Shown here: positions 45,346 to 63,683 of the stretch, piece by piece
Numbering within the stretch: the stretch's first letter is position 1
Layout of the letters: each line of letters opens with the position of its first letter
IMG/VR virus record: IMGVR_UViG_3300045988_129598
From: a virus
Length of the DNA: 63,683 nt
Direction: 5' to 3' (one strand)
Program-made: the position numbers and the translations under genes
Notes under the pieces: generated by a model
What the model was told of the DNA's origin: nothing
The model's database searches: none
What the model saw: only the letters and a program-made list of their open reading frames with translations

Positions 45346-45351
45346 GAATTA

Positions 45352-46639: not shown

Positions 46640-46651
46640 AGCAATTTCTCC

Positions 46652-47623: not shown

Positions 47624-47644
47624 ATAGTGCTCTCCTTTCAAATA

Positions 47645-47875: not shown

Positions 47876-47892
47876 AATGCTCCCCTTTCAAC

Positions 47893-48372: not shown

Positions 48373-48390
48373 CGGGACTCCTTTCAAATA

Positions 48391-49126: not shown

Positions 49127-49129
49127 GCT

Positions 49130-49426: not shown

Positions 49427-49429
49427 AAT

Positions 49430-49690: not shown

Positions 49691-49694
49691 ATGC

Positions 49695-50991: not shown

Positions 50992-51197
50992 TACCACTCA
51001 ACTTCCTTTCCGAGCAGCACCTGCTCACACGCCATCTGAATTGAAATATCACGAGAAATCCCCTCGTCCAGCCAGCGCGAGGTCAAAGCAATCGCTTCCT
51101 TAATATATTGCTTATCCTCAACACTCTCCGGATCGAGGGGAACATGATTCAGTTTTGCCCATTTGCAAATGTCTTTTGTTTTAACTGGTTTGGCCAT
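50991..51197 (-). CDS. hypothetical protein
   Basis: ATG at 51197 follows AAGAGG. Confidence 0.45.
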   Translation of the reverse strand: MAKPVKTKDICKWAKLNHVPLDPESVEDKQYIKEAIALTSRWLDEGISRDISIQMACEQVLLGKEVEW

Positions 51198-51417
51198 CGG
51201 CATGCCTCTTATCATATTCGATTAAATCGCGAAAATCAGTCTCTCTGGGATTGATCGCCATGAACTTCTTAAAGTCCGTCGCGCATGTGCAACAAAGGTC
51301 TAGCTCCTCTCTTATTAGGCCGCATACCCCTGATGTGCTAATATGGAAATTATTTTCTGCCGCAATACCTAATGTTTCATATATGCGACCGCATCGATCA
51401 CATTTGGTCACCGTCAT
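51181..51417 (-). CDS. zinc-ribbon hypothetical protein
   Basis: CDRCG...CCTC motifs. RBS GAAGGAGG. Confidence 0.5.
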   Translation of the reverse strand: MTVTKCDRCGRIYETLGIAAENNFHISTSGVCGLIREELDLCCTCATDFKKFMAINPRETDFRDLIEYDKRHADGQTS

Positions 51418-51628
51418 CTTTTTGGTCCTCCTTCAGCTCATCCCAGCCAGCAGCCCAACCGGGATAATTACGACTGAAACGCTTTGCATTGCGAGTAAAA
51501 AGTGCAAAAAACCCTCCTCCAAGCATCAAAGTAATACCTCCAACCGCAAGAGCACCTAATCCTGCTCCATAAAAAGCTCCAACGTTCATTGCCTTAGCAA
51601 CCATTTTGGTGAGTTCCTTCTTGTCCAT
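51398..51628 (-). CDS. Gly-rich membrane protein
   Basis: GAFYGAGLGALAVGGITLMLGGGFFALF. RBS GAAGGAGG. Confidence 0.55.
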   Translation of the reverse strand: MDKKELTKMVAKAMNVGAFYGAGLGALAVGGITLMLGGGFFALFTRNAKRFSRNYPGWAAGWDELKEDQKDDGDQM

Positions 51629-51630
51629 AT

Positions 51631-51942
51631 TTAGTCCTCCTTCTTGCTCGGATACTTTTCTTCCAGTTCATCGATCCCGTTGCCGAGATAGCAAGCTTTA
51701 TAATCAAGCCCGCGTTCGAAGCAATCCATGCAGACCAGTGCATACTCGGCAGCTCGTTTAAGTTCTTCTTCAGTAGCGCCCATTTTAGACATACGTTCAA
51801 ATAAATGGATAGCCCTACCAATGAGAATCTTGTGATAGTGCTCGGTCATCATTTCAATGTGGCCAGCCCATTTGTTCCTATAGTCATCAGAGCCAACGAT
51901 ATCAATGATCCTTTGAAGATTCATACTGATCGAAATATTCAT
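51631..51942 (-). CDS. hypothetical protein
   Basis: ATG at 51942 follows AAGGAGG. Confidence 0.5.
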   Translation of the reverse strand: MNISISMNLQRIIDIVGSDDYRNKWAGHIEMMTEHYHKILIGRAIHLFERMSKMGATEEELKRAAEYALVCMDCFERGLDYKACYLGNGIDELEEKYPSKKED

Positions 51943-51955
51943 ACGCGCATCCTCC

Positions 51956-52606
51956 TTACATAGCTTCAACTCTAGGCATCAGAATCCGATATCCGCCGGG
52001 GACAGATTCGTAATTCGGATAGCCACCGCCAAAGGACTTCCAGCCCCATTTACGATCAGTGTACTGACTGGGAACGCCAACAGTGCAATAGAAGTCATCG
52101 ACCGTTACGTACTCATACATCTGCATAAGGTCTTCAAGTTTTCGACAGACACTTTCCGCCTCTTCTCGAGTGCCGACAACGATTTCATCAGGCGTGACTC
52201 GTCTCGGTCGCTCTCCAACGTTTCCCCGTGTGCCATAATCATACATGGAGTTATATGGCATGTTATTATTTCGTACTGTCGTGCTACCTGTCTGGCCTCT
52301 TCCACGGGTTCGCACAGGCTGCCCTGTAAGCAGCGTTGAAACCAGATCGATCACGCTATCCGCAAACATTTTCTTCGCTGATGGAATGAAAATATCAAAG
52401 ACCGCATTCGTCAATCGCTCCTCGATGCTACCGTCAAAGATATTATCCATAATGCGCTGGCCGAGTCCCGGCTTTTTGACTGTTACATTGCCAGTCGTAA
52501 CCGGTTCGACCTTTTTAGGTTCGGCCGGAAGATTAGTCTGCTGATTGTTTTCTTTGGCGGCATTCGAATTATTCGGGTACATAGGAACGCCACGGTTCTC
52601 ACTCAT
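51956..52606 (-). CDS. hypothetical protein with shared ~90-aa C-terminal module
   Basis: ATG at 52606 follows GGAGGAAG. The C-terminus ERPRRVTPDEIVVGTREEAESV...YTDRKWGWKSFGGG...GGYRILMPRVEA is shared with gene 55775..56320. Confidence 0.55.
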   Translation of the reverse strand: MSENRGVPMYPNNSNAAKENNQQTNLPAEPKKVEPVTTGNVTVKKPGLGQRIMDNIFDGSIEERLTNAVFDIFIPSAKKMFADSVIDLVSTLLTGQPVRTRGRGQTGSTTVRNNNMPYNSMYDYGTRGNVGERPRRVTPDEIVVGTREEAESVCRKLEDLMQMYEYVTVDDFYCTVGVPSQYTDRKWGWKSFGGGYPNYESVPGGYRILMPRVEAM

Positions 52607-52859
52607 TCTCTTCCTCCGTTCCGGCAAAGGCGGTCTGGAGAATATTGATCGCATTCGCCGCTTCGTCAACCACATTGTCTGTCGTGGATTGGGTTGCTTC
52701 TGTAATCGCCGCAACGATAGCCAAGCTCGCGATGCTTACGCAAGCCTTCGATAATCCCTTCGAGTTGGGCAGAACCATTTTGATTGCGCCGCAGATGATT
52801 GTCTCGATGCCGATTCCAACCACGAGATTGACGATGCTTTTCACGTCCTCAAGTTTCAT
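52599..52859 (-). CDS. membrane protein
   Basis: 86 aa with two hydrophobic segments. RBS GAAAGGAG. Confidence 0.55.
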   Translation of the reverse strand: MKLEDVKSIVNLVVGIGIETIICGAIKMVLPNSKGLSKACVSIASLAIVAAITEATQSTTDNVVDEAANAINILQTAFAGTEEENE

Positions 52860-52886
52860 TTGGTGCTCTCCTTTCCAATATAAATC

Positions 52887-53126
52887 TCAGTGCTCATGGC
52901 GACCGGGATCGATGTAGTTGTTAATCACGATGGGCGCATTCTTACCAGATGAAATATCTTCTTTTTTTCGCTGACCCATCTCAAATGCAAAAACAACGCC
53001 AAGAATAACGATCTCGATCAAAGGCATGAAATCATCGAGCGTCTTTTTTCCGCTTTCCTTGGCGGTTTCGATCGCGGTCTCAGTGGCCTTAGCCGCGAAT
53101 TTCTGCGCCACCTTCTCAAAGAACAA
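52887..53126 (-). CDS. membrane protein
   Basis: TTG start after GAAAGGAGG. One TM, LIEIVILGVVFAF. Confidence 0.5.
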   Translation of the reverse strand: MFFEKVAQKFAAKATETAIETAKESGKKTLDDFMPLIEIVILGVVFAFEMGQRKKEDISSGKNAPIVINNYIDPGRHEH

Positions 53127-53149
53127 GAATATCCTCCTTTCGTAAACGG

Positions 53150-53192
53150 CGAAAAGAAAGGGAAGATGCTAAGTAATTCTTAACATCCTCCC
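53150..53192 (-). terminator. intrinsic terminator
   Basis: Minus strand GGGAGGATGTTAAG-N6-CTTAGCATCTTCCC (two G-U pairs, minus sense only) followed by TTTCTTTT. Confidence 0.6.
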
Positions 53193-53219
53193 ATTGAGCA
53201 GAATCTCAAATATCATTTG

Positions 53220-53444
53220 TCAGCTGACCGTGTAGTCGTCATCGTTGCTGTCCCCATGATCCTTGCCGCCGAGCAGAGCAGCACCTAATACAGCAGCACC
53301 GACTCCAGCAGCGAACGGAAGTACGCGGTTGCAAATAAAGTTTTTCACACCGGCCTTCGTAGGCTTCTGGATGCGCTGCTTCTTAGTATCCTGAACCTGT
53401 TCGGTCTTGGTTTCCTGAGCAACAGTCTGATTCGTCTTTTCCAT
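53220..53444 (-). CDS. C-terminally TM-anchored small protein
   Basis: 74-aa ORF with RBS TGGAGGA. TM segment LPFAAGVGAAVLGAALLGG. Confidence 0.55.
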   Translation of the reverse strand: MEKTNQTVAQETKTEQVQDTKKQRIQKPTKAGVKNFICNRVLPFAAGVGAAVLGAALLGGKDHGDSNDDDYTVS

Positions 53445-53487
53445 AAGTTAAATCCTCCAATAAATTTTATTTAAGAGTTTCCTCTCT

Positions 53488-53512
53488 ACTATAAGCCTTG
53501 CAATTTTCGCGA
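53488..53512 (-). promoter_or_regulatory. TCGCG-N14-TATAGT motif copy
   Basis: Minus strand TCTCGCGAAAATTGCAAGGCT-TATAGT-AGAGAGG upstream of gene 53220..53444. Confidence 0.45.
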
Positions 53513-53513
53513 G

Positions 53514-53547
53514 AGAAAAATATAAGAGCCCACGTTTCCATAGACTC
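53514..53547 (-). terminator. intrinsic terminator
   Basis: Minus strand GAGTCTAT-GGAAAC-GTGGGCTC (three G-U pairs, minus sense only) followed by TTATATTTTT. Confidence 0.55.
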
Positions 53548-53561
53548 TCATACAGGATAGA

Positions 53562-53723
53562 TTAGTCGATTCTCTCATAAGTTCGAGGATCAAATTTTAC
53601 ACTGCAATTTTTAAAAAGGAATTTCGTTGCCCGGCTTTTTGGAAATGCTATTGTTATAATACTAGTCAACATATCCACAACACCAATAATAGCAAAGAAT
53701 CCGATAATAATTTTAGCGATCAT
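53562..53723 (-). CDS. 53-aa membrane micro-protein
   Basis: Below track cutoff. TTGAAAGGAG lies 8 nt before ATG. Product MIAKIIIGFFAIIGVVDMLTSIITIAF... Has its own motif copy upstream and a terminator downstream. Confidence 0.5.
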   Translation of the reverse strand: MIAKIIIGFFAIIGVVDMLTSIITIAFPKSRATKFLFKNCSVKFDPRTYERID

Positions 53724-53760
53724 AAATCATTTCTCCTTTCAAGTGTAGACTAATCCGTCT

Positions 53761-53785
53761 ATTATACGCTTTGCATTTTTTGCGA
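53761..53785 (-). promoter_or_regulatory. TCGCA-N14-TATAAT motif copy
   Basis: Minus strand CTTCGCAAAAAATGCAAAGCG-TATAAT-AGACGG overlaps the 3' end of gene 53762..54133. Confidence 0.45.
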
Positions 53786-54133
53786 AGTACACGAACTTGT
53801 AGGAACATATACCTCATCAAAGAAGCTCAACAGAATATTAAGAATCCCTTTTTTATAAGTTTCGAAATGCCGGGCAGCCAAGCCATCTGTTACACCGTCA
53901 TCTTTGCTGCTGAGGAATACAGCGATCGTATGCTCGTTATCGGCAATACCAATGTAGAAGAGGCTATTCGCCAGCAGAACATGGGAATCTCGACGAATCC
54001 ACTTATTCTGTTTATGAAAAAAGGGAAATCGTTCTTCGATCTCTCGAAACGCTTCTTCCAGAATATCAGGTTCATATTCAACGTACCATTGGGCAGCATA
54101 ATCGCCCGAAGCATAGTAATTACCTCGTCCCAT
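53762..54133 (-). CDS. hypothetical protein
   Basis: ATG at 54133 follows GGGAGG. The upstream part of the track ORF overlaps gene 54187..54381. Confidence 0.5.
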   Translation of the reverse strand: MGRGNYYASGDYAAQWYVEYEPDILEEAFREIEERFPFFHKQNKWIRRDSHVLLANSLFYIGIADNEHTIAVFLSSKDDGVTDGLAARHFETYKKGILNILLSFFDEVYVPTSSCTSQKMQSV

Positions 54134-54186
54134 AACGCCTCCCGAAAAACGAAAGAGGCCGTGAAGACCTCCTTCTGTCGATAGGT

Positions 54187-54381
54187 TTAGAACATTGCTG
54201 GATAGAGCGCAATCATTCCCCACAGGATCACATTGATGAGCAGCGTCCCGATCAGTGCTCCGACATTGGCACCCATCCAGAAATAATTCTTTTCTTTTTG
54301 CGTGCAAGTCAGGTCGTTCTCATCAGCTTCCCTTTCCCTGTAGAAGAATTTGTAAAGTTTCTCCATCATGGCAAACACCAT
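54187..54381 (-). CDS. small membrane protein
   Basis: 64 aa with C-terminal TM pair GANVGALIGTLLINVILWGMIALY. Confidence 0.5.
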   Translation of the reverse strand: MVFAMMEKLYKFFYREREADENDLTCTQKEKNYFWMGANVGALIGTLLINVILWGMIALYPAMF

Positions 54382-54400
54382 CCTTTCATTATAGGTCGTG

Positions 54401-54925
54401 TTATTTCAGCGAGCCGTAAAGGACTAGGCTACCTGCTTCGAAGGATTTTCGCACATCAATAATGCGCTGATTTGAGCTACCACGCCACAAAAGCGAAATA
54501 TCTTTCTTTTCTTCGATAAACGGACCATCTACGAGGACGTCAATGTCCCTCAGTAGCATGTGCATACGACCGTGATCGCAATCATCCATTAGCTCTTCCC
54601 ATGTATACCCAGTCCAGCACCAAATATCCTGCGTAGGCGACTGTCTATGCTTTTTAATGTCATGCGCTATAACGCAAAGCATAGGTTCGTTTTCTTTCTC
54701 GAAAGGTTCTCCTCCAAGAAAGCTGAATCCGTCGTAATTTTGAGATTTCGAATAGGCTATGATGGCGTCCAGCATTCCATCGGTGACCGGCTGCCCATAC
54801 TCAAAATCCTGCGCTTCTGGGTTAAAACATCCGGGGCATCGCCTTCTGCACCCGCTGACCCAAATGCTCATCCGGATTCCCGGTCCATTAGCAACATCAT
54901 AGGGAACGATCTTTGCGATTTTCAT
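54401..54925 (-). CDS. nrdG: anaerobic ribonucleotide reductase activating protein
   Basis: N-terminus VANGPGIRMSIWVSGCRRRCPGCFN (radical-SAM Cys cluster of the NrdG type). 174 aa. Confidence 0.9.
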   Translation of the reverse strand: MKIAKIVPYDVANGPGIRMSIWVSGCRRRCPGCFNPEAQDFEYGQPVTDGMLDAIIAYSKSQNYDGFSFLGGEPFEKENEPMLCVIAHDIKKHRQSPTQDIWCWTGYTWEELMDDCDHGRMHMLLRDIDVLVDGPFIEEKKDISLLWRGSSNQRIIDVRKSFEAGSLVLYGSLK

Positions 54926-55707
54926 TCTACACCGCTTTCCGCCAGCTCAACCGGCATACCGTCTTTATACACGCCATCTGTATACCATCCATCGAGAAAT
55001 TCCGCACTCGGCTCAATATCATAGGTGATCTGGTAGAGACTCTTACCATTCACGTCAACATCCAGCAATTCATGCGAAATATCAATCCAACAGAATCCTT
55101 CCGTGACCGACCATCCGATCATTTGGGATTCCGGTGTTATCGGGATTCCCAAGAAATATAAGAATTCGCTTAAAGAGGCATATCCGCGCAATACAAAGTT
55201 TCGGTTAAAATGGTACTCGGCATCCATGATTTCCCGCTCATACCTCTCAAATGTCTGATGGGTCATGGGCTCGACAAACATAAATTTCCCATCTGGGCAA
55301 TCCAATGCTTGACGATGATACCCCGGATCATTCCTTGTAATCTCCGCCCGAACCTCTTTATCGAATTCTATGCCTTTTTTCTCAATGACTTTCGCTCGAT
55401 AATCGGAATATGTCTTAGTTGCTCCAGCGTACAGTGCAGCCATGGCAGCAGTCTGTTTCGCACTTATCGCATTACCACTCATAATGCATCCAATCGTCAC
55501 GCCAGCAGTAACAGCGGTCGGAATATAAGTCTTGGCGATGTCGAGTCCTGTTGGGTCAAGCCCGTCGGCATACATGTCCGCCACATCCATCGTTGCTTTT
55601 GCGCTGGCTACGGCTGTTCCGATCACACCGACGCTACCGAGCACACTCAAGATCGTAGGGGCATGCCGTTTGGTGAAGCGGACCAGATTCCAAAACGTTT
55701 TAGACAT
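54922..55707 (-). CDS. two-TM paralogue family member 2
   Basis: RBS TTGAAAGGAG. The N-terminal basic segment, TM1, A-x-x-A-T motif, TM2 and Y-R-x-K-V-I-E region are shared with 46652..47623 and 59654..60418. Confidence 0.6.
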   Translation of the reverse strand: MSKTFWNLVRFTKRHAPTILSVLGSVGVIGTAVASAKATMDVADMYADGLDPTGLDIAKTYIPTAVTAGVTIGCIMSGNAISAKQTAAMAALYAGATKTYSDYRAKVIEKKGIEFDKEVRAEITRNDPGYHRQALDCPDGKFMFVEPMTHQTFERYEREIMDAEYHFNRNFVLRGYASLSEFLYFLGIPITPESQMIGWSVTEGFCWIDISHELLDVDVNGKSLYQITYDIEPSAEFLDGWYTDGVYKDGMPVELAESGVE

Positions 55708-55774
55708 AGAAGCTCTCCTTTCAAAATGTGGCTTAAAATTACTCGCTTACGTCAAAATCACTATGAAGTTCTGG

Positions 55775-56320
55775 TCAATCCCAAACTGACGCCGACACAG
55801 CTTCAATTCTAGGCATTAGAATTCGATATCCACCAGGAACAGATTCATAGCTTGGACAGCCGTCACCGAAAGACTTCCAGCCCCACTTTCGGTCAGTGTA
55901 CTGACTGTGAACGCCAACGATACAATGGAAGTCATCGACTGTCACGTACCCATACCTCTGCATAGTATCCTTAAGTGCTTGGCAGACGCTCTCCGCTTCT
56001 TCTCGAGTATTGACGATGATTTCATTGGGCGTAACTCGTCTCGGACGCTCTTCGACGTCTCTCCGCGTATCATAATCGCACCTGCAATGATTCAATTTGG
56101 TATACGCGTCAAAATACATCGCCTGTGCATCTCCATCATAGGTAACCTCGAACATAAGTTCGTCCGGTGTCGGTGCGGCGAGAATAATTTTATGGTTTTG
56201 GAGCGTCTTGCATTGCCATATAACGAAAATATCCGTCCATTCGATAGGCTTTTGATGATACTCGGCAAGATAGTCAGCAACCTTTTTCTTCGCTTCAACC
56301 ATAAAATCGTAACTAGTCAT
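55775..56320 (-). CDS. hypothetical protein with shared ~90-aa C-terminal module
   Basis: ATG at 56320 follows AAAGGAGGG. The C-terminus is alignable with gene 51956..52606 (nucleotides 55801-56072 versus 51964-52235). Confidence 0.55.
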   Translation of the reverse strand: MTSYDFMVEAKKKVADYLAEYHQKPIEWTDIFVIWQCKTLQNHKIILAAPTPDELMFEVTYDGDAQAMYFDAYTKLNHCRCDYDTRRDVEERPRRVTPNEIIVNTREEAESVCQALKDTMQRYGYVTVDDFHCIVGVHSQYTDRKWGWKSFGDGCPSYESVPGGYRILMPRIEAVSASVWD

Positions 56321-56662
56321 GTTTTTATACCCTCCTTTTAAATATGGCTTTTTATAAATCACTTATGCATGCGATAACGCCGATGAGCCATGCGATGACG
56401 AATGAAGTAACGAATATTACAGGATCAAACTTCATGAATATGTCACCTCACAGTTTTAATTTTGGAATCGTTATTTTGAATAACAAGAACATTGTCGCCA
56501 TCAAAGTCTGATCCATAGTCCAGCGACCATTCCAAATATACAACCAGCAAGATATGCTACCATAACGACTACTTCCAAAGTAGTATCGTCAATCATCACT
56601 AAAAATCGCCTCCCAAATCGCCATACATATCCATGCTAAAACAAATGCCTCAATCCAGTTCA

Positions 56663-58804
56663 TTATAAGTGCATCACCCGATCTCTAATTTCAGCCGTTC
56701 GTCCCTGATTCCAGAACTGTGTACCGATATAACCACAGGTTCGTCTGGCGACATTCATCGTTTTCTGATCTCTGTTGCCGCACTTCGGGCACTCCCAAAT
56801 CAATTTTCCATCCTCCTCTACAATCTGGATTTCGCCATCGTACCCGCATTTCTGGCAATAGTCTGATTTCGTGTTAATTTCAGCATACATGATATGGTCA
56901 TACATATACTGAATCAGTCGAATAACAGCCTGAACATTTCCAATCAGATTTGGAACTTCGACATAGCTGATGGCCCCGCCCGGACTCATTTTCTGGAACC
57001 GACTTTCGAAATCAAGCTTTGTAAAAGCGTCAATCGGCTCGCGTACATTAACGTGATACGAATTGGTAATATAAGTGTGGTCGGTTACTTCTTTAATAAT
57101 GCCAAATCGTTTGCGCAAGCACTTAGCGAATTTGTACGTCGTGGACTCAAGCGGGGTTCCATACACACTATAGTCGATATGCTCCGCTTCGCGCCACTCC
57201 TTACATTTATCGTTCAATCGCCTCATGACAGCAATCGCAAATGATTCACCTCTGGGCTCAGTATGGCTAACATGCATGAAAGCCTGGCAACATTCGTACA
57301 ATCCTGCATATCCGAGCGAAATTGTCGAATATCCATTATAAAGAAGTTTGTCGATTGTTTCGCCATGCTTTAGTCTGGCCAGAGCACCGTGCTGCCAAAG
57401 GATCGGAGCAACATCAGACACTGTTCCCTTCAACCGCTCATGCCTGCATCGCAAAGCACGATGACAGAGCTCAAGTCGTTCGTCAAGGACGGTGAAGAAA
57501 TCTCTTTCTTCTTTAATAGCAGTGAGCGCAACATCTGGAAGATTGATCGTAACGACGCCTTGGTTGAAACGCCCATAGTATTTCGGCTTTCCGTTCTCAT
57601 CCTTATAAGGCGTGAGGAAGCTTCGGCAACCCATACACGGATAGCAGTCACCCTTCAGTTCCAGCATCAATTTCTCGGAAATATAATCTGGAACCATTCG
57701 TTTAGCCGTGCACTTGGCTGCCAATTTCGTCAGATAGAAATACGGAGAATCTTCATGGATGTTGTCTTCTTCAGTTACATAAAGAAGCTTCGGAAATGCA
57801 GGAGTGATCCAAACGCCGGACTCGTTCTTTACTCCCTGAATACGCTGATTCAGCATCTCCTCGATAAGCATAGCGAGGTCCTCTTTTTCTCGTGGATTCT
57901 CAGCTTCATTCAGATACATCATGACCGACAGGAAAGGTGCCTGCCCATTCGTTGTCATCAATGTAATGACTTGGTACTGAATAGTCTGAATACCCTTCTG
58001 AATTTCTTTTCGGAGACGACGTTCCACGATATTATCGATATACAACTCACCACCCGGAATGTCATAGTCGAGCATCTCCTGCATAACTTCTTTACGAATC
58101 GCCTGTCTCGAAACATCCACGAACGGTGCAAGGTGTGCAAGGCTGATCGTCTGACCGCCGTACTGACTTGAGGCTACCTGTGCGACGATCTGCATGGCAA
58201 TGTTGCAGGCTGTGGAGAAGCTATGTGGCTTATCGATCTTCACGCCGCTGATAACCGTCCCGTTTTGCAGCATATCCTTGAGATTCACGAGACAGCAGTT
58301 GTGCATATGCTGAGCAAAGTAGTCCTTGTCATGCACATGGATAATGCCCTGTCTATCCGCCTCCACAATGTCCTGAGGCAGAAAATATCTTTCTGTCAGA
58401 TCTTTAGAGACGTATCCGGCCATATAGTCTCTCTGAACACTGTTGATGACCGGATCTTTGTTGCTGTTTTCCTGAAGCGCTTCTTCGTTTGCCTGATCGA
58501 TCAACGACAGAATCTCAGCATCCGTGCTGTTTCCTTTACGGATTTTCTCTCGATCATAGCGATAACGAATATAATCTCTAGCTACGGTCGCATAGCCGTT
58601 TTCCATCAAGGCATCTTCAACCATGTCTTGAATTTCTTCGACATGGGGCGCTCGACCAAGCAACGCGCATTGATCCCCTACACTGTCTGTAATCTTGGCA
58701 ATATTATCGAATGGTATTCTGTCTTTGCCCGCCCGAGTAATTGCTCCAGCGATCTTTGTTGCGTCGAACTCGACTTCAGTTCCGTTTCGTTTGATGACTT
58801 TCAT
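56663..58804 (-). CDS. nrdD: anaerobic ribonucleoside-triphosphate reductase
   Basis: ATP-cone start MKVIKRNGTEVEFD. C-terminal Zn site CQKCG...CPKCG and glycyl-radical motif RRTCGYIG. 713 aa. Confidence 0.95.
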   Translation of the reverse strand: MKVIKRNGTEVEFDATKIAGAITRAGKDRIPFDNIAKITDSVGDQCALLGRAPHVEEIQDMVEDALMENGYATVARDYIRYRYDREKIRKGNSTDAEILSLIDQANEEALQENSNKDPVINSVQRDYMAGYVSKDLTERYFLPQDIVEADRQGIIHVHDKDYFAQHMHNCCLVNLKDMLQNGTVISGVKIDKPHSFSTACNIAMQIVAQVASSQYGGQTISLAHLAPFVDVSRQAIRKEVMQEMLDYDIPGGELYIDNIVERRLRKEIQKGIQTIQYQVITLMTTNGQAPFLSVMMYLNEAENPREKEDLAMLIEEMLNQRIQGVKNESGVWITPAFPKLLYVTEEDNIHEDSPYFYLTKLAAKCTAKRMVPDYISEKLMLELKGDCYPCMGCRSFLTPYKDENGKPKYYGRFNQGVVTINLPDVALTAIKEERDFFTVLDERLELCHRALRCRHERLKGTVSDVAPILWQHGALARLKHGETIDKLLYNGYSTISLGYAGLYECCQAFMHVSHTEPRGESFAIAVMRRLNDKCKEWREAEHIDYSVYGTPLESTTYKFAKCLRKRFGIIKEVTDHTYITNSYHVNVREPIDAFTKLDFESRFQKMSPGGAISYVEVPNLIGNVQAVIRLIQYMYDHIMYAEINTKSDYCQKCGYDGEIQIVEEDGKLIWECPKCGNRDQKTMNVARRTCGYIGTQFWNQGRTAEIRDRVMHL

Positions 58805-59235
58805 TTAAAATACCCCTCCCGCATATTTGTAACTCGGCCGCCTGTAATTTCATACAAAGTAGCTCTCTTAACGTGATCTTTCCAACTCTTTGGAGCTTCT
58901 TTTTCCCGAATATCGAAGTCTACCTTTTCCGCTTTACTCCACTCTTTGAGCGTATCGATAATCTGGACGTAGCCCATGCCCGGTCCCGCGTATTCCATAT
59001 AAATTCTGGGATAACTGTCATCAGGATCGATGCTGCTGTAAAGCCTCATCGTATTGTCGAAATCTCCGAACCGCTTCAGAAAAGAAGAAAGGGGGATGAA
59101 CTGTTTCGGATCATCCGCCCAAGCCTGAATTTCGAATTCCCTTTGCACGTTTACTCGACACCTCCACGCATACACCATATAAACACAGAACAGTACAAGC
59201 CATACAATCATAAGTGCCACCATTGCTGCATCCAT
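58801..59235 (-). CDS. membrane-anchored hypothetical protein
   Basis: N-terminal TM MVALMIVWLVLFCVYMVYAW. ATGA overlap with the nrdD start. Confidence 0.55.
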   Translation of the reverse strand: MDAAMVALMIVWLVLFCVYMVYAWRCRVNVQREFEIQAWADDPKQFIPLSSFLKRFGDFDNTMRLYSSIDPDDSYPRIYMEYAGPGMGYVQIIDTLKEWSKAEKVDFDIREKEAPKSWKDHVKRATLYEITGGRVTNMREGYFK

Positions 59236-59237
59236 GA

Positions 59238-59468
59238 TCAATTAACCTCGCTTTCCAGAATCGCTTCATAATATCGCAGTGCCGTTCGAAGAACCGCCGT
59301 TTTACTCATTGTTCCCAGCTCCATGCAGTGGGTAAGAATATCTGCATCCTTTTCGGTCAGATAAAAACTTTCCCAGCCTGCTGTAACAGGGTTGATGTAG
59401 TCATTCTTTCCAGCGGTGGAAGAGACGATAGAACCATGAGTGCTCATTCTCCCATCTCGCTTTCTCAA
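59238..59468 (-). CDS. possible ribbon-helix-helix DNA-binding protein
   Basis: C-terminal FYLTEKDADILTHCMELGTMSKTAVLRTALRYYEAI has a strand-helix-helix layout. The start is uncertain because the ORF overlaps the upstream gene. Confidence 0.4.
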   Translation of the reverse strand: MRKRDGRMSTHGSIVSSTAGKNDYINPVTAGWESFYLTEKDADILTHCMELGTMSKTAVLRTALRYYEAILESEVN

Positions 59469-59646
59469 TCAGTTTGTCGAGTTCTGTTTTAGGTCTTCTG
59501 AAGGGAGCGCTCTGCACCATACCGGGAGCCACGTATTTTTCATAATACTCCCAATACTCTTTTGTTCCGTAGAATTGCTCATATGCCTCCCTGATCTTTG
59601 CAATGCTGTTTTCCTTCAGCAAGCCATTAACTCGAAAGATCACCAT
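59401..59646 (-). CDS. hypothetical protein
   Basis: ATG at 59646 just after the stop of gene 59654..60418. 81 aa. Confidence 0.45.
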   Translation of the reverse strand: MVIFRVNGLLKENSIAKIREAYEQFYGTKEYWEYYEKYVAPGMVQSAPFRRPKTELDKLIEKARWENEHSWFYRLFHRWKE

Positions 59647-59653
59647 AGCGCCA

Positions 59654-60418
59654 TCAAAGGACACTAAATCCACTTCGGGGCTTACTATCCAAATCGAAGT
59701 CCACGATTCCATAAGGAATACCATCCTCCCTCATGCCGGTCGTGATGTACGGTTCAACCCTTGTCGGGCTTCCCCAGCCTACTTCGTCGCCCATATTGTT
59801 CGGCGTCAATTTAGGATTGTCCAGCGCTTCATAGTAATCGTTCAGCGAAGCATAATAGCTTCCGAGGATTTTGTAGTTGACATCGTTAAACGCTTTCATA
59901 ATCCGCTCATAGGTAGACCAGAAATATCTTCCGCTGTACGCATCGAAGAACAAAGACTCTCCGTCATGACTTTCTTTGGTCATCGCGGCAAGCTGATTGT
60001 TTTGCCTTTCTGCCCGCTCTTTCGCCACTTCATCCCGAATCTCTCGTTCCTTCTTTTCGCCGATTGTCTCGATTACTTTCGAACGATAATCTTTTGCCAT
60101 GTTCTCAGAAAGGTTCAGGAGCGTTGTCAGCGCGGCAGTCCGCTTCTTTGAAATATCATTGGACTTAAAACCACAGGCAATGCTCAGAGCAGTTGCCGCT
60201 ACAGTCGGAGCATACTCCGGTACGACAGTCTTGATCATCTCGACCGTACCTTCCGGCTTCTTTTCATCTACCAGCCGAACCGCTTTGACCGTTGCTTCGC
60301 CGCAAAGCACAACAGCAGCGATAGTTCCAATCGAGCTTGCCACTGAAAGAATCGTGGAGGCGTGAGTCTTTCCGAAATGCCTGAGAACTTGAATACCAGT
60401 AGCGAACAAGTTTTTCAT
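59654..60418 (-). CDS. two-TM paralogue family member 3
   Basis: ATG at 60418 follows TTGAAAGGAG. Architecture shared with genes 46652..47623 and 54922..55707. Confidence 0.6.
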   Translation of the reverse strand: MKNLFATGIQVLRHFGKTHASTILSVASSIGTIAAVVLCGEATVKAVRLVDEKKPEGTVEMIKTVVPEYAPTVAATALSIACGFKSNDISKKRTAALTTLLNLSENMAKDYRSKVIETIGEKKEREIRDEVAKERAERQNNQLAAMTKESHDGESLFFDAYSGRYFWSTYERIMKAFNDVNYKILGSYYASLNDYYEALDNPKLTPNNMGDEVGWGSPTRVEPYITTGMREDGIPYGIVDFDLDSKPRSGFSVL

Positions 60419-60433
60419 AGAGATTTCTCCTTT

Positions 60434-60468
60434 CAAAAATAAAAAAAGAAAGAGCCGAAGCTCCCTCT
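60434..60468 (-). terminator. intrinsic terminator with UUCG loop
   Basis: Minus strand AGAGGGAGC-TTCG-GCTCTTTCT (two G-U pairs) followed by TTTTTTTATTTTT. Confidence 0.65.
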
Positions 60469-60698
60469 TACAGATAGCGAACCGTGTAATCCGTGACGCT
60501 CACTCTATGACCGTTAAACGTGTCCGCCGCAGTATAATTCATTGCGCCGTCATCTTCTCGGCTGATAAAGTGGAAATCAACATAGTTACCGTTGGCTACC
60601 TCAAAAGGTACAGTCTTCGGACAATCTTCCTTTGTCATAACAGAATTTCCAAACAACACAGTCATCATTAAAGCAGCACAAATAACCAATTTCTTCAT
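60468..60698 (-). CDS. small secreted protein
   Basis: Signal-peptide-like MKKLVICAALMMTVLFGNSV. RBS AAAGGAG. Confidence 0.55.
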   Translation of the reverse strand: MKKLVICAALMMTVLFGNSVMTKEDCPKTVPFEVANGNYVDFHFISREDDGAMNYTAADTFNGHRVSVTDYTVRYL

Positions 60699-60742
60699 AG
60701 TCTTGTTCTCCTTTTAATATCATAATTGTGATTATGGTTTCT

Positions 60743-60767
60743 ATTATAACCCTTGTGTTTTCTGCGA
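60743..60767 (-). promoter_or_regulatory. TCGCA-N14-TATAAT motif copy
   Basis: Minus strand GCTCGCAGAAAACACAAGGGT-TATAAT-AGAAACC. Confidence 0.45.
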
Positions 60768-60768
60768 G

Positions 60769-60803
60769 CAAAAAGAAAAGAGCCCACGTTTTCGTGAGCC
60801 CTC
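60769..60803 (-). terminator. intrinsic terminator
   Basis: Minus strand GAGGGCTCACG-AAAA-CGTGGGCTCTT (11 pairs, 3 G-U, minus sense only) followed by TTCTTTTT. Confidence 0.65.
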
Positions 60804-60806
60804 GTC

Positions 60807-60947
60807 TTAAAATATACTTTCGAGCCAATCTCCAAATTCGTCGAACATTTTTCCTACGAGTTTTAGCGCGAGCTTAAAGCCTTTCCAGCAGATAACAATA
60901 CCAATACATCCTACCATCAGGCTCAAGGCTGCTGTCGCAATTCCCAT
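60807..60947 (-). CDS. 46-aa membrane micro-protein
   Basis: Below track cutoff. GAAAGGAG lies 8 nt before ATG. Product MGIATAALSLMVGCIGIVICWKGFKLALKL... Flanked by a motif copy and a terminator. Confidence 0.5.
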   Translation of the reverse strand: MGIATAALSLMVGCIGIVICWKGFKLALKLVGKMFDEFGDWLESIF

Positions 60948-60982
60948 AATAAAATCTCCTTTCGATTTTGAACAATGATTCT

Positions 60983-61007
60983 ATTATAAGAATTGTAGAT
61001 TTTGCGA
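60983..61007 (-). promoter_or_regulatory. TCGCA-N14-TATAAT motif copy
   Basis: Minus strand ATTCGCAAAATCTACAATTCT-TATAAT-AGAATC. Confidence 0.45.
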
Positions 61008-61013
61008 ATATGT

Positions 61014-61313
61014 TTACCACATTCCCGCCTGATGTCCGCAAAACGCAATCATAGCGATAAGTATTCCGATTCCCACAAACGCCATACCGGTATCATTATT
61101 CATCTTCTTTTCTTGGAACTTAATCTCCTGAATCTTAGCCTCATCAATGATCCGTTTCGTCTTACATGAGTTTTCATTGACATTCAGTGTAACGGTAACG
61201 TTGTTCTTCTTATCAACTGAGATTTTGGAGCCGCAGTAGGTACAGAAAAAGACGTCGGCGTTATTTTCAACCATGACACTCTTTTTACAGTTTGGACAGA
61301 TTATAGTTCTCAT
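61014..61313 (-). CDS. zinc-ribbon + C-terminal TM protein (tandem copy B)
   Basis: CPNCKK...CTYCGS, then NENSCKTKRIIDEAKIQEIKFQEKKMNNDTGMAFVGIGIL, which is shared with gene 61329..61637. Confidence 0.6.
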   Translation of the reverse strand: MRTIICPNCKKSVMVENNADVFFCTYCGSKISVDKKNNVTVTLNVNENSCKTKRIIDEAKIQEIKFQEKKMNNDTGMAFVGIGILIAMIAFCGHQAGMW

Positions 61314-61328
61314 AACATTATTTCTTAT

Positions 61329-61637
61329 TTATAACAGTCCCGCTTTATAGAAACTGAATAAAGCTATTGCGAACAATATTCCAATTCCCACAAACGCCAT
61401 ACCGGTATCATTATTCATCTTCTTTTCTTGGAACTTAATCTCCTGAATCTTAGCCTCATCGATGATCCGTTTCGTCTTACATGAGTTTTCATTGACGTTC
61501 ACAGTTACCGTGACTTTATTACTTTTATCTATGGAGATTTTGGAGCCGCAGTAGGTACAGAAAAACGAATCGATGTTTTCGTCCACGGTAAGAACGGCTC
61601 CACAGTTCGGGCAGGTTACGGATTTTGTTTTAGTCAT
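61329..61637 (-). CDS. zinc-ribbon + C-terminal TM protein (tandem copy A)
   Basis: ATG at 61637 follows GGAGGGGAA. About 117 nt (61384-61501) match 61069-61186 with 2 mismatches. Confidence 0.6.
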   Translation of the reverse strand: MTKTKSVTCPNCGAVLTVDENIDSFFCTYCGSKISIDKSNKVTVTVNVNENSCKTKRIIDEAKIQEIKFQEKKMNNDTGMAFVGIGILFAIALFSFYKAGLL

Positions 61638-61788
61638 ATCGTTCCCCTCCAAGTCGAAAAATAAAAAACCCTTGTATGCTTCTAACATACGTCTCCGGTA
61701 TTCCGGTGTCCTCCAATTAGACGATTATTGCGGGCTAACTTAGGACCCAATGCCTAAGCCTCCCACGGGTAAACTCCCAAAGTTCTCT

Positions 61789-61813
61789 ATTATAGCCCTT
61801 GCTTTTTTTGCGA
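61789..61813 (-). promoter_or_regulatory. TCGCA-N14-TATAAT motif copy
   Basis: Minus strand GCTCGCAAAAAAAGCAAGGGC-TATAAT-AGAGAAC, about 150 nt upstream of the ATG at 61637. Confidence 0.45.
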
Positions 61814-61814
61814 G

Positions 61815-61904
61815 CTAGTCTATATAGAATGTTTCAAGAATATATACCGTTGCTAGAATCCCTGTTACAAATCCTATGAATAAGCATACTGCATCCGAAC
61901 TCAT
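61815..61904 (-). CDS. 29-aa hydrophobic micro-protein
   Basis: Below track cutoff. TAAGGAGG lies 9 nt before ATG. Product MSSDAVCLFIGFVTGILATVYILETFYID. Confidence 0.35.
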   Translation of the reverse strand: MSSDAVCLFIGFVTGILATVYILETFYID

Positions 61905-61921
61905 CCGTCAAGACCTCCTTA

Positions 61922-61956
61922 CGAAAAATAAAAAAGAAAGAGACCATGTAGGTCTC
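61922..61956 (-). terminator. intrinsic terminator
   Basis: Minus strand GAGACC-TACAT-GGTCTC followed by TTTCTTTTTTATTTTT. Confidence 0.55.
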
Positions 61957-61970
61957 CTTTAAAAAAGCAT

Positions 61971-62219
61971 TCATAACCTAAGAATTGAACGCCCGTTGAA
62001 TAGTCCTCTATAGGCTTCCATACACAGATTCAGCATGCGAGTCTTTTCACAATCTGGCATCGTACCAAATTTAATCGACTTTACATACTGATGTAACGCC
62101 TCGCAAATTTTACAATATGTATCCCGATCAATGCAATACAGAGGGTAGTCATCATGGTCATGAATTTCTCTATCTGTTAATACATAATATCTCTTTCCCA
62201 AAATTTCGATCTTTTTCAT
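61971..62219 (-). CDS. hypothetical protein
   Basis: ATG at 62219 follows TAGGAGGTG. 82 aa. Confidence 0.55.
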   Translation of the reverse strand: MKKIEILGKRYYVLTDREIHDHDDYPLYCIDRDTYCKICEALHQYVKSIKFGTMPDCEKTRMLNLCMEAYRGLFNGRSILRL

Positions 62220-62233
62220 AAAGATCACCTCCT

Positions 62234-62258
62234 ATAATAGAAGATGCTTTTCCTGCGA
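62234..62258 (-). promoter_or_regulatory. TCGCA-N14-TATTAT motif copy
   Basis: Minus strand TTTCGCAGGAAAAGCATCTTC-TATTAT-AGGAGG. The RBS abuts the hexamer. Confidence 0.4.
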
Positions 62259-62291
62259 AAAAATAAAAAGAAAGAGCCCTTGTTAGAGCTC
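62259..62291 (-). terminator. intrinsic terminator
   Basis: Minus strand GAGCTC-TAACAA-GGGCTC followed by TTTCTTTTTATTTTTT. Confidence 0.55.
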
Positions 62292-62305
62292 AATCTCTCA
62301 AATCA

Positions 62306-62560
62306 TCAGGCATAGACCATTTCTGCGATTCTTGTGCCAAAGTAGTAGCTCACGTTCGTCTTTGAAGCATCGATATCATAATGCGTAACACCAATCGGTC
62401 TTCCTTTTCGAATGTTGACACGATTATATTTCCGAATTAACTTCGAAAACATTCTTCGCTGATCCATCGTTTCAAAATAGAATCTGATCGGAGCATTAAA
62501 TCCTTCCAACTCCACATCACAAGCGTATCCTACCGTATGGCAGATAATAATAACTTCCAT
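62306..62560 (-). CDS. hypothetical protein
   Basis: 84-aa ORF with RBS TAGGAGGAA. Confidence 0.55.
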   Translation of the reverse strand: MEVIIICHTVGYACDVELEGFNAPIRFYFETMDQRRMFSKLIRKYNRVNIRKGRPIGVTHYDIDASKTNVSYYFGTRIAEMVYA

Positions 62561-62586
62561 AATAGTTTCCTCCTAATAATATTTCT

Positions 62587-62611
62587 ATTATAGGAGCTGC
62601 AATTTTTGCGA
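62587..62611 (-). promoter_or_regulatory. TCGCA-N14-TATAAT motif copy
   Basis: Minus strand ATTCGCAAAAATTGCAGCTCC-TATAAT-AGAAA, 1 nt after the stop of gene 62613..62855. Confidence 0.45.
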
Positions 62612-62612
62612 A

Positions 62613-62855
62613 TTATGAAAAGTGTTTCTTGCTGCTATAGTCTCGAATATCCGCCTTATAAAGTGGTTCTGGAGAATCTTCTGGTCCGCTCTTCACAACA
62701 ATATCAGTCAGCTCAGCAAATTCTTTGACGCCCGAAAATTGATCGGTCATGATTTCGAGAAAAGCGTCCAGAAATTTGTCACAGGACTTTTGCGAGCAAA
62801 CCTTTTCGTCCACCATATCGAATCCGATCACCACTTCAAAATGCGCCTTTCTCAT
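62613..62855 (-). CDS. hypothetical protein (first gene leftward of the divergent promoter region)
   Basis: 80-aa ORF with RBS AAAGAGG. Confidence 0.55.
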   Translation of the reverse strand: MRKAHFEVVIGFDMVDEKVCSQKSCDKFLDAFLEIMTDQFSGVKEFAELTDIVVKSGPEDSPEPLYKADIRDYSSKKHFS

Positions 62856-62889
62856 AGAATATACCTCTTTTCTTTCTAATTAGTAAAGC

Positions 62890-62918
62890 TTTACAAATAT
62901 TACGCGTTGTGCTATAAT
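62890..62918 (+). promoter_or_regulatory. canonical sigma-70-type promoter with extended -10
   Basis: TTTACA (62890-62895), 17-nt spacer ending in TGC, TATAAT (62913-62918). A weaker opposing TTGATT-N18-TAATAT (62926-62897, minus) overlaps it. Confidence 0.6.
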
Positions 62919-62945
62919 ATAATCAACAATTACGGGCCGTCCCCT

Positions 62946-63389
62946 TTGCCAGACAAATATGCGATAACAGTTGATTTTATACCGCATAAAACTCGTTGGG
63001 ACCCCAATCCAGACCTCGACGGCTATACTCCGCATTATCGTGATATCATCAGTTTTTGTTTAGCCGTTGACGTACCAGACGAGCTTGGCATTGTTCATGA
63101 TTTTTCTGACGCTATGATCCGAAAAGGGCATAAGACAACTGACGGCAATGGAGAATATTGCTACATTATTGCACCTCAACTTTCGTGGAACATCATGCCG
63201 GGGCAAAGTACCGATTCGCTTCTGAATGACGCCATAAAGCAGATATCTTCCCTTCGCGCAGTCAACTTGGCTTATCCCGATAATGGTGAACGCAAAGTCA
63301 TTCCGCTTTCGGTTACAAACTGGTGGGTGACACACGGAAGTTTCCCGATAGAAGATAAATACAAATACGATGCCCGACATCAAGCATAA
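62946..63389 (+). CDS. plus-strand protein of unknown function (moron / lysogeny-expressed candidate)
   Basis: Open frame 62907..63389, the only long plus-strand ORF not shadowing a minus gene. The promoter overlaps the track start, so TTG at 62946 is the first in-frame start. No clear RBS. A terminator follows the stop. Confidence 0.45.
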   Translation: MPDKYAITVDFIPHKTRWDPNPDLDGYTPHYRDIISFCLAVDVPDELGIVHDFSDAMIRKGHKTTDGNGEYCYIIAPQLSWNIMPGQSTDSLLNDAIKQISSLRAVNLAYPDNGERKVIPLSVTNWWVTHGSFPIEDKYKYDARHQA

Positions 63390-63427
63390 AAAGAAAGAGG
63401 GATTGTTAAAACCCCTCTTTTTTTTTT
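63388..63427. terminator. bidirectional terminator between convergent genes
   Basis: AAGAGGG-N11-CCCTCTT flanked by an A-run upstream and T10 downstream. Confidence 0.65.
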
Positions 63428-63632
63428 AGAAAAACCAGCGTTTCTTTTTAGGTTTTTCGATATAGCCTGCCAACATGCCAAATGCCGCGATGGTTGCATC
63501 ACTGATTTTATGATAGTCAAGTCTGTCCCACCAATGTGTATGGTTTCGAACATACTTAGCTACCATTTCGTCTGTGATTTTTCCAACTCCCGGATAATCG
63601 GCATATCCGTCACTGTATCTCTTTTTAAACAA
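63426..63632 (-). CDS. hypothetical protein
   Basis: ORF 63426..63650; the preferred start is TTG at 63632, 8 nt after AAAGGAG. The start is uncertain. Confidence 0.5.
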   Translation of the reverse strand: MFKKRYSDGYADYPGVGKITDEMVAKYVRNHTHWWDRLDYHKISDATIAAFGMLAGYIEKPKKKRWFF

Positions 63633-63683
63633 AGAAATCACTCCTTTCACTATACAGCATGTAATTTCTGCGAAAAAAAAAAG
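63585..63683. repeat. 99-bp terminal overlap (copy of 1..99)
   Basis: Identical to 1..99. Confidence 0.9.

Follow-up and report, generated by a model that had tools for sequence, protein, structure and literature searches.

The DNA analysed here, IMG/VR virus record IMGVR_UViG_3300045988_129598 (63,683 nucleotides (nt), hereafter the window), is the whole 63.6-kb genome of a temperate siphovirus with nearly all of its genes on the minus strand. It carries twelve copies of a 29-nt motif with the full consensus YTCGCR-rAAAww-RCA-N5-TATAAT-AGA and encodes a 936-residue protein predicted to be a single-chain two-barrel RNA polymerase (RNAP). The motif is found together with this polymerase family-wide, in phages of Firmicutes and Actinobacteria. 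In the interpretation favoured here, to which a probability of roughly 0.6 is assigned, each copy is a phage-specific promoter read by the 936-residue polymerase and not by the host sigma-A holoenzyme. A promoter for a phage-encoded RNAP is an element of a known kind; the consensus proposed for this polymerase family and its conservation across phyla are new, save for one genome note on Gordonia phage Vardy.

Identification of the motif

An exact search of the window for TCGCR-N14-TATAAT returned seven matches, confined to the minus strand, where 0.10 are expected from dinucleotide-preserving shuffles. A 29-nt weight matrix recovered twelve distinct sites scoring 18.9 to 41.4 bits. Eleven of them (28-41 bits) had been listed in an earlier note made from the sequence alone, and were found at the same coordinates, on the same strand and with the same gap of exactly 14 nt between TCGCR and the hexamer; the twelfth, at 54385-54413, is absent from that list. 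In 50 shuffled genomes the top score was 15.7 bits, and 0.24 matches are expected above 10 bits, so that the shuffled control leaves twelve minus-strand sites against ~0.2. The single plus-strand match (62213-62241, 14 bits) is the palindromic shadow of the site at 62234.

Alignment of the sites reveals constant positions at TCGC, at CA (positions 13-14) and in the T..A.T frame of the hexamer, with an A-tract at positions 7-9 and, usually, AGA on the 3' side. The hexamer, described previously as TATAAT, has that sequence in 8/12 copies and reads TATGAT at 528, TATAGT at 53488 and 63649, and TATTAT at 62234; A at position 2 and T at position 6 are kept in 12/12, and the hexamers are thus sigma-A-compatible inside the window. 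AG follows it in ten of the eleven listed sites instead of in all, the copy at 63649/65 having GA. All twelve sites lie on the gene strand, and a start codon preceded by a Shine-Dalgarno (SD) sequence follows each of them after 14-100 nt. Only four, with upstream ends at 63674/90, 53513, 60768 and 62259, directly follow a hairpin and T-run terminator, fewer than the "most copies" of the earlier note.

No -35 element is present at 16-18 nt from the hexamer: TCGCR is 14 nt away, as had been pointed out, and hexamers at the 17-nt position read ggatTC, agccTC, ttgcTC, ttttTC and similar. A scan with the sigma-A consensus returned none of the motif sites, and the extended -10 (TGn) occurs at 10243 and 36884 only (2/12), as claimed before. 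Between 50 and 63.6 kb the minus strand holds no canonical sigma-A promoter with at least 10 of 12 matches. The SD begins 0-2 nt past the hexamer at 62234, 63649 and 54385, which confirms the two listed copies with an abutting ribosome-binding site and adds a third; the same is seen at site 2284 of Faecalibacterium phage FP_oengus. Two other assignments were rejected. A sigma-54 promoter (TGGCAC-N5-TTGCA), raised by TCGCA-N5-TTGCA in some copies, lacks GG and has a GCA-GCA spacing of 9 instead of 12 nt, while RCA or TTACA as a -35 would lie only 5 nt from the hexamer. The twelve copies, all on the minus strand, with the open reading frames (ORFs) that they precede, are:

62-90, identical to 63646-63674 (minus; site 63649/65): early-type copy TTCGCAGAAATTACATGCTGTATAGTGAA, one site, as the earlier note had it, seen twice through the 99-nt terminal overlap of the circular assembly; hairpin and T10 terminator directly upstream, SD 2 nt past the hexamer, ORF ~63426-63632 downstream
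525-553 (minus; site 528): early-type copy TTCGCGGAATTAACATTTCTTATGATAGA, heading ORF 164-502 (112 residues)
10240-10268 (minus; site 10243): late-type copy CTCGCGTCAAGAACATATGCTATAATAGA, followed by GGAGATAGAATACG; past the integrase gene, with the endolysin (9432-10163) and tail-fibre-like genes downstream
36881-36909 (minus; site 36884): late-type copy CTCGCGTAGAAAACATATGCTATAATAGA, just past the helicase stop codon; upstream of a VRR-Nuc-like endonuclease (36505-36801), an exonuclease (35886-36575), the RNAP and the packaging and structural genes
53485-53513 (minus; site 53488): early-type copy CTCGCGAAAATTGCAAGGCTTATAGTAGA, directly after terminator 53520-53553; heads ORF 53220-53444
53758-53786 (minus; site 53761): early-type copy TTCGCAAAAAATGCAAAGCGTATAATAGA, heading ORF 53562-53723
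54385-54413 (minus): the twelfth, weaker copy CTCGCTGAAATAACACGACCTATAATGAA (18.9 bits), overlapping the last codons of ORF 54401-54925; SD 2 nt past the hexamer, ORF 54187-54369 downstream
60740-60768 (minus; site 60743): early-type copy CTCGCAGAAAACACAAGGGTTATAATAGA, directly after terminator 60778-60803; heads ORF 60468-60698
60980-61008 (minus; site 60983): early-type copy TTCGCAAAATCTACAATTCTTATAATAGA, heading ORF 60807-60947
61786-61814 (minus; site 61789): early-type copy CTCGCAAAAAAAGCAAGGGCTATAATAGA, heading ORF 61329-61688
62231-62259 (minus; site 62234): early-type copy TTCGCAGGAAAAGCATCTTCTATTATAGG, directly after terminator 62274-62291; SD AGGAGG abuts the hexamer, ATG at 62219
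62584-62612 (minus; site 62587): early-type copy TTCGCAAAAATTGCAGCTCCTATAATAGA, heading ORF 62306-62560

The predicted two-barrel RNA polymerase

The protein that would read the motif is encoded directly upstream of the packaging and structural genes:

33071-35881 (minus): predicted single-chain two-barrel RNA polymerase, 936 residues

It matches PHROG family 4291 (phrog_4291, E=0) and displays the catalytic loop ADFDGD at residues 523-528. Three helix-turn-helix (HTH) modules, two N-terminal and one C-terminal, match Sigma70_r4 and HTH_23 and are sigma-4-like. The best fold match of the AlphaFold2 model (mean predicted local distance difference test, pLDDT, 78) is Arabidopsis RDR2 (E 3e-5), followed by beta-prime subunits. 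A search of PDB sequences with the polymerase profile matched the HTH parts only, the polymerase core being seen by fold search. On these sequence and model data the protein is predicted to be a YonO/QDE-1-like two-barrel polymerase with fused DNA-binding modules. The proposed reader is not of the T7-like (Pol I-fold) type: its fold is two-barrel, and the Pfam scan of the protein gave no T7 RNA_pol match.

Homologues with 37-53% identity are present in 251 deposited phages, whose hosts are Arthrobacter, Gordonia, Streptomyces, Rhodococcus, Microbacterium, Curtobacterium, Bifidobacterium, Lactococcus and Faecalibacterium. The family comprises at least 8000 protein clusters and is frequent in prophages of Lachnospiraceae, Ruminococcus, Blautia and some Actinobacteria. 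The contigs of the relatives L114-L193 are mostly from Clostridia, among them the isolates Blautia faecis DFI.3.66, Lachnospira hominis NSJ-43 and Cuneatibacter caecimuris DSM 29486, and from some Actinobacteria; a few contigs from metagenome-assembled genomes that carry the polymerase are labelled Bacteroidales, Prevotella, Proteobacteria or Bathyarchaeum, perhaps through binning errors. The phage belongs to the "1706 / FP_oengus / actinophage AM-DJ-BI" supercluster, in which this protein has been named the signature gene and RNAP-HTH is the sole conserved transcription or DNA-binding protein; promoters are not discussed in that study (bioRxiv 10.1101/842583). No virion proteomics bearing on packaging of the polymerase was found in the literature.

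Conservation of the motif in related phages

When relatives were scanned with the window matrix, each of those from IMG/VR had one copy ~1 kb upstream of the polymerase gene, even where the polymerase is just 40-53% identical. Some 130 further loci have the motif at about that distance too. Whole genomes of relatives contain many further copies, with unchanged spacing, again on the gene strand and in short intergenic regions. Cultured phages from both phyla are among them:

Arthrobacter phage Mudcat: 7 copies, TTCGCGTAAATTACATGGGCTATAATAGA; 45% GC, with a host of 63% GC
Gordonia phage Duffington: at least 6 copies, cTCGCA-N6-TACA-N5-TATAATGAGACCCCTA
Streptomyces phage FrodoSwaggins: 13 copies, cTCGCA-N6-TACA-N5-TATAATGAGACCCCTA
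Lactococcus phage P118: 9 copies, TTTTACAYACCCTATAATGAR; upstream TCGCR absent
Faecalibacterium phage FP_oengus: 15 copies, rACGCGAAAAAT-RCA-N5-CTTTATGGA

A further 840 kb of related loci gave 63 gene-strand against 2 opposite-strand matches with a generic matrix. When a 53-nt actinophage copy was compared with 50,697 phage records, 117 records matched at 755 places; every genus matched is one in which the polymerase occurs too, and for Gordonia (55) and Rhodococcus (4) the two counts agree. The motif is likewise present in polymerase-bearing phages of Rhodococcus and Microbacterium and in prophages of Clostridia and Actinobacteria. An exact scan of IMG/VR for TCGCR-N7-RCA-N5-TATAATAGA yielded 8 contigs with one match each, which is about chance level.

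Most of 158 loci display a late-type copy upstream of the polymerase, usually 940-1100 nt from the conserved SGRYP codon, and 110 unique late-type copies were gathered over an 850-1400-nt search range upstream of the gene. Their hexamer has T in 97% at position 1, A in 48% and T in 47% at position 2, T in 95% at position 3, A in 47% and T in 51% at position 4, A in 96% at position 5 and T in 98% at position 6. Judged by these aligned copies, the family-wide hexamer is T-W-T-W-A-T and not strict TATAAT. The TTTTAT version occurs in 43/65 Clostridia prophage loci, CTTTAT in 13/15 FP_oengus copies, and early-type hexamers read CTTTAT, CTTAAT or TCTAAT in FP_oengus and the related loci L019, L021 and L102. 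The eight positions on the 3' side of the hexamer are purine-only in relatives (0-1% pyrimidine), although five of them lay outside the search matrix.

Some variants and neighbouring features of the relatives are recorded here. The late-type copies of the related loci L063, L072, L076, L085 and L089, ~950 nt ahead of the RNAP gene, have a second TCGCR in place of the CA element, ~11 nt past the first, e.g. ATCGCAGGATAATCGCAGTATATAATAGA. This sub-lineage suggests two related half-sites for HTH binding, one helical turn apart. In FP_oengus (L028) a large stretch ahead of the polymerase operon is annotated as intergenic (26895-27765). Repeats resembling TTTTGGCCAAAAACCCACTT occur in it together with an unannotated ORF of ~150 codons, and an origin, a packaging region or a regulatory region are its possible roles. 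The same phage has intergenic tRNA-like stretches beside motif copies at ~2930-3010 and 18580-18660 (candidates …GATAGCTCAGTTGGCAGAGCGC… and …GGGTCAGTAGCTTAGTCTGG…GGTTCAAATCC…), and a motif copy seems to lie immediately upstream of one of these.

In the published record, the motif is mentioned only in the genome note on Gordonia phage Vardy (cluster DJ), which reports a 50-bp intergenic motif, present five times among the small genes of the central block, and reads it as a possible regulator with a TATAAT sigma-70 -10 (PMC9671010). The Vardy motif is the actinophage version (…TACA-N5-TATAATGAGACCCCTA…GAAAGGA…ATG), and the same sequence occurs in Duffington. Unlike the present analysis, the Vardy note connects the motif neither with the polymerase or other phyla nor with the late-type copy ahead of the polymerase gene or the non-sigma-A hexamers of relatives. 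Papers on clusters of Arthrobacter, Microbacterium and Rhodococcus phages do not describe the motif, and no paper was found that defines promoters for this polymerase family.

Early and late copies and the plus-strand genes

Early and late copies share the same core and the same spacing. The ten early-type copies (TCGCR-AAAAww-GCA/ACA…) precede small ORFs of no assigned function, at 53.4-63.6 kb and 0.5 kb, while the two late-type copies at 36884 and 10243 have in common TCGCG-N6-AACATATGCTATAATAGAGGAGATAGAATACG and follow the pattern TCGCG-N6-AACAT-ATGC-TATAAT-AGAGGAGATAGAATACG. In all lineages the copy upstream of the polymerase operon is followed by a purine-rich GGAGA…GAAT start region and, within 30-65 nt, by a hairpin and U-run. 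From the content of the genes behind them, copies 36884 and 10243 would be late promoters with a leader terminator. The leader structures of the window are:

10190-10221 (minus): terminator-like leader hairpin GAGAGACCATG-AAAG-CATGGTCTCTT with T-run, 22-53 nt after the 10243 hexamer
36851-36877 (minus): hairpin GATAGAATA/TATTCTATC, preceding the leader terminator at 36820-36847
36820-36847 (minus): leader terminator GGAGATG-gaaa-CATCTCC, then TTTTATTTTT, past the late-type copy and ahead of the first late gene

Immediately past the T-run of the latter terminator, the sequence TTTTTCGCAAAGGAGG (36811-36829, minus) displays the same T-run and TCGCA junction as the early copies and runs into the SD of the first late gene without the remaining motif.

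The replication block (36912-53220, minus; ~16 kb, encoding primase-polymerase, helicase and others) contains zero motif copies, and its genes must rely on another promoter type or on read-through. A terminator (53160-53192) lies just upstream of the block, and a candidate promoter CTGACA-16-TGn-TATTAT is located at 48089 (minus).

The only textbook sigma-A promoters near genes are the two on the plus strand, in agreement with the earlier note: TTGACA-16-TAATAT at 44740-44767 (plus), preceding ORF 44902-45603, and TTTACA-17-TGn-TATAAT at 62890-62918 (plus), preceding ORF 62907-63389. Neither ORF matched a Pfam or PHROG family, and the second overlaps the minus-strand ORFs 63060-63383 and 62880-63035. 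The plus-strand ORFs may be expressed in the lysogen from host promoters, and the lytic genes from the motif.

The motif as a probable promoter for the phage polymerase

For recognition of the -10 element by the sigma-70 family, the A of position 2 and the T of position 6 matter most. In relatives, where position 2 is the least constrained of the six, the hexamer does not persist as a sigma-A -10. The location of the SD is consistent with a start outside sigma-70 geometry: at 62234, 63649 and 54385, the first two of which follow terminators, a sigma-70-type start ~7 nt downstream would strip the SD from the mRNA, so that the message would begin at the end of the hexamer. Transcription thus probably starts immediately past the hexamer, and the offset of 5-9 nt expected in the earlier note presupposes sigma-70 geometry. 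The purine run after the hexamer resembles the initially transcribed region of phage-polymerase promoters.

From these features we infer which enzyme reads the motif, where transcription begins, what the HTH modules do and when the copies are active. The sigma-4-like HTH modules would dock on the duplex upstream elements, namely CGCR at ~-24 to -21, the A-tract and CA at ~-13/-12, while the T-W-T-W-A-T hexamer (TATAAT here) at ~-6 to -1 would form the AT-rich melting region; RNA synthesis would begin in the conserved purine run (AGA...) right after it. The ten early-type copies would drive short units of small genes (~53.4-63.6 kb and 0.5 kb), four of them bounded by intrinsic terminators. The late-type copy at 36884 would head the nucleases, RNAP, packaging and structural genes, and that at 10243 the endolysin and tail fibres. 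With the polymerase gene behind its own promoter type, expression would be subject to positive feedback, while lysogeny-side ORFs on the plus strand would be driven by canonical host promoters.

Several observations weigh against this assignment. The link between polymerase and motif rests on co-occurrence, which common descent alone could also give, and a comparison of HTH recognition helices with the variants of TCGCR, ACA and hexamer in ~65 lineages revealed no clean covariation: in P118, L018 and L019 the second HTH helix and TCGCR are both altered, while in L090 and L109 the helix is altered and TCGCA is kept. Since all twelve hexamers of the window are sigma-A-compatible, host RNAP could use them, maybe weakly, and the intrinsic terminators that bound early units fit host RNAP. 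The motif-free replication block means that at least one further promoter type is at work. Because the polymerase gene lies behind a late copy and a leader terminator, and many relatives are prophages, the first enzyme must come from host-driven or read-through expression; a virion-delivered enzyme alone is insufficient as a full answer, since many relatives are integrated. Finally, the weight matrix found no match in the 1.68-kb yonN-yonK gap of SPbeta (best score ~0 bits).

Alternative explanations

Some of these points are accommodated if the motif is shared between two enzymes, with the early copies of this TATAAT-bearing lineage acting as -35-less sigma-A promoters that host RNAP fires when infection or induction begins, and the phage polymerase using the late copies only, or using them in addition, an arrangement that we regard as fairly unlikely, though it keeps considerable weight. 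The common CGCR/CA elements would then let the HTH modules of the polymerase bind early promoters later in infection, either taking them over or shutting them off. The preservation of A2 and T6 in 12/12 hexamers fits this view, as do the need of early genes for a polymerase ahead of all phage protein synthesis and the fact that relatives are often prophages, which cannot count on a virion enzyme. Early units end at intrinsic terminators typical of host RNAP, the RNAP gene resides in a late-type operon just as yonO adjoins the YonO-transcribed late operon of SPbeta, and the late copies form a sequence class of their own, with a leader terminator. However, with no -35 and TGn in 2/12 copies the motif would be a weak sigma-A promoter in Firmicutes, and three early copies would lose the SD from their mRNA if transcription began ~7 nt downstream, as at a sigma-70-type start. 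The early hexamers CTTTAT, CTTAAT and TCTAAT of FP_oengus, L019, L021 and L102 cannot be sigma-A promoters, and early and late copies are alike in core and spacing. The dedicated phage promoter is preferred over shared use.

The earlier note had offered either a phage-specific promoter or an operator class, and as reader either the phage RNAP or host RNAP with a phage factor bound at TCGCR. Comparison supports the promoter and makes the operator unlikely; as for the reader, the evidence favours the polymerase, as the motif travels with its gene and the hexamers of relatives are not of sigma-A type. In phage T4, the MotA box of middle promoters occupies the -31 to -27 region. A hexamer at -12 to -7 would put TCGCR at precisely -31 to -27, and a conserved box at fixed spacing without a -35 reproduces T4 middle-promoter architecture, with a hexamer that is TATAAT in this phage; sigma-A would read the hexamer as -10 and a phage protein at TCGCR/CA would replace the -35 contact, much as in T4 sigma appropriation by AsiA and MotA. 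Such a co-factor mechanism appears improbable, as the Pfam and PHROG scans of ~30 window ORFs (not every small ORF) returned no MotA, AsiA or sigma-like match except the polymerase HTH, and the polymerase alone is conserved among transcription and DNA-binding proteins of the supercluster (bioRxiv 10.1101/842583). In addition, the hexamer is not a sigma-70 -10 in most Clostridia relatives, the SD abuts it at three sites, and the first early promoter could not await a factor not yet made. That the motif is instead an operator, a "stoperator" for a prophage repressor overlapping weak promoters and silencing lytic genes in the lysogen, is very improbable. Mycobacteriophage L5 has asymmetric gp71 stoperator sites, and the many co-oriented asymmetric copies in short intergenic regions of a temperate phage with an integrase (10477-11655) resemble that arrangement. 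In contrast, Mudcat, Duffington and FrodoSwaggins, lytic phages for which neither an integrase nor a repressor is annotated, have the motif at least as often; the early small ORFs and both plus-strand ORFs, scanned against Pfam and PHROG, revealed no repressor-like protein; and the conserved block takes in the AT-rich hexamer and a purine run, whose distance to the SD is fixed, which indicates a start site rather than a binding site alone.

Genome context

The window termini (1-99 and 63585-63683) are identical, indicating a circularly closed assembly and a genome of ~63,584 bp. Pfam and PHROG scans identified the integrase, TerL, a portal protein, a primase-polymerase, a helicase and NrdD. 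The phage is without close relatives among deposited phages, as megablast of 50000-63683 against phage records gave no match, and none were found in the bacterial genomes searched. A full-length anaerobic ribonucleotide reductase (NrdD, 56663-58804, minus; ATP-cone and glycyl-radical domain) lies among the early units, which suggests an anaerobic host. The Rfam group I intron RF00028 was matched over the full-length model at 13145-13468 (minus; 58 bits), adjoining ORF 12573-13148 and reaching into the 3' end of the tail-protein ORF 13407-15287. The latter gene looks as if it is split by a self-splicing intron.

Significance

Two-barrel single-chain RNAPs such as YonO are seen as models of ancestral RNA polymerases, and the present analysis offers a candidate for the sequence by which such an enzyme finds its promoters. 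It comprises a 29-nt consensus with constant positions (CGC, A-tract, CA, T-W-T-W-A-T and the purine run), an early and a late subclass, a leader terminator that is conserved, and natural variants by the dozen, paired with a polymerase whose catalytic core is fused to sigma-4-like domains. Cultured relatives include Mudcat, Gordonia cluster DJ, Streptomyces cluster BI, Lactococcus 1706/P118 and the prophages of Blautia faecis and Cuneatibacter caecimuris. If correct, the assignment would represent a new mode of promoter recognition for a two-barrel polymerase, provide an orthogonal transcription system for Gram-positive synthetic biology, and correct the annotations "sigma-70 promoter" for the motif and "HTH DNA-binding protein" or "RNA-dependent RNA polymerase" for the enzyme. 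A stronger proposal, which we put forward tentatively and hold to be possible but doubtful, is that the enzyme needs no sigma factor, relying on its built-in sigma-4-like modules, and transcribes nearly the whole lytic programme, early and late, the motif being the first promoter consensus for the HTH-fused YonO-like family. These phages would then be largely independent of host promoter recognition, which could explain the moves of the lineage between phyla and its tolerance of a 20-30% GC mismatch with its hosts.

Comparison with known systems

The motif is similar to T4 middle promoters in having an upstream box at a fixed distance from a TATAAT-like hexamer and no -35, and differs in the three respects set out above, namely the lack of a MotA or AsiA homologue in the ~30 ORFs scanned, a hexamer that in relatives is not a -10, and an SD abutting the hexamer. 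The late-type copies, followed within 30-65 nt by a hairpin and U-run before a long late operon, resemble lambda PR'-tR'. As in lambda, the late operon crosses the genome ends in linear relatives and lysis genes lie upstream of the terminase; in contrast with lambda, no Q-like protein was identified here and the polymerase is probably the phage's own. The N4 and crAss-like virion RNAPs provide a parallel for a phage polymerase (two-barrel in crAss-like phages) that would transcribe early genes lacking host-type promoters and whose gene is expressed with late genes. Their polymerase is injected, whereas many relatives of the phage with the 105-kDa enzyme described here are prophages that must start without a virion enzyme.

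The T7, T3 and SP6 systems differ from the one described here in their Pol I-fold enzyme, as the polymerase of the window is predicted to be two-barrel (YonO/QDE-1/RDR-like) with fused HTH modules, in the unrelated sequence of the motif, and in the location of the polymerase gene, which lies here in a late-type operon and not in a host-transcribed early region. The organisation is otherwise comparable to their class II/III promoters, with many near-identical copies, all in the direction of the genes, of a long uninterrupted motif (~29 nt in the window and 23 nt in T7), an AT-rich block right before a purine-rich start, subclasses for different gene sets and a phage-encoded polymerase. Among known enzymes, YonO of SPbeta provides a further comparison. 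It is too distant for detection by tblastn with the 936-residue protein, its yonN-yonK gap gave no match to the motif, and here the motif precedes early-type genes too. The YonO promoter sequence was left undetermined, while its start site precedes a non-coding RNA and the late operon forms a single long transcription unit (Forrest et al. 2017, PMC5467207). Both systems have a single-chain two-barrel RNAP, predicted as such here, with a DxDGD loop and a gene adjoining the late operon, both have an exonuclease gene after the late start, and the YonO start before a non-coding RNA has its counterpart in the late-type copies described here, which precede a structured leader.

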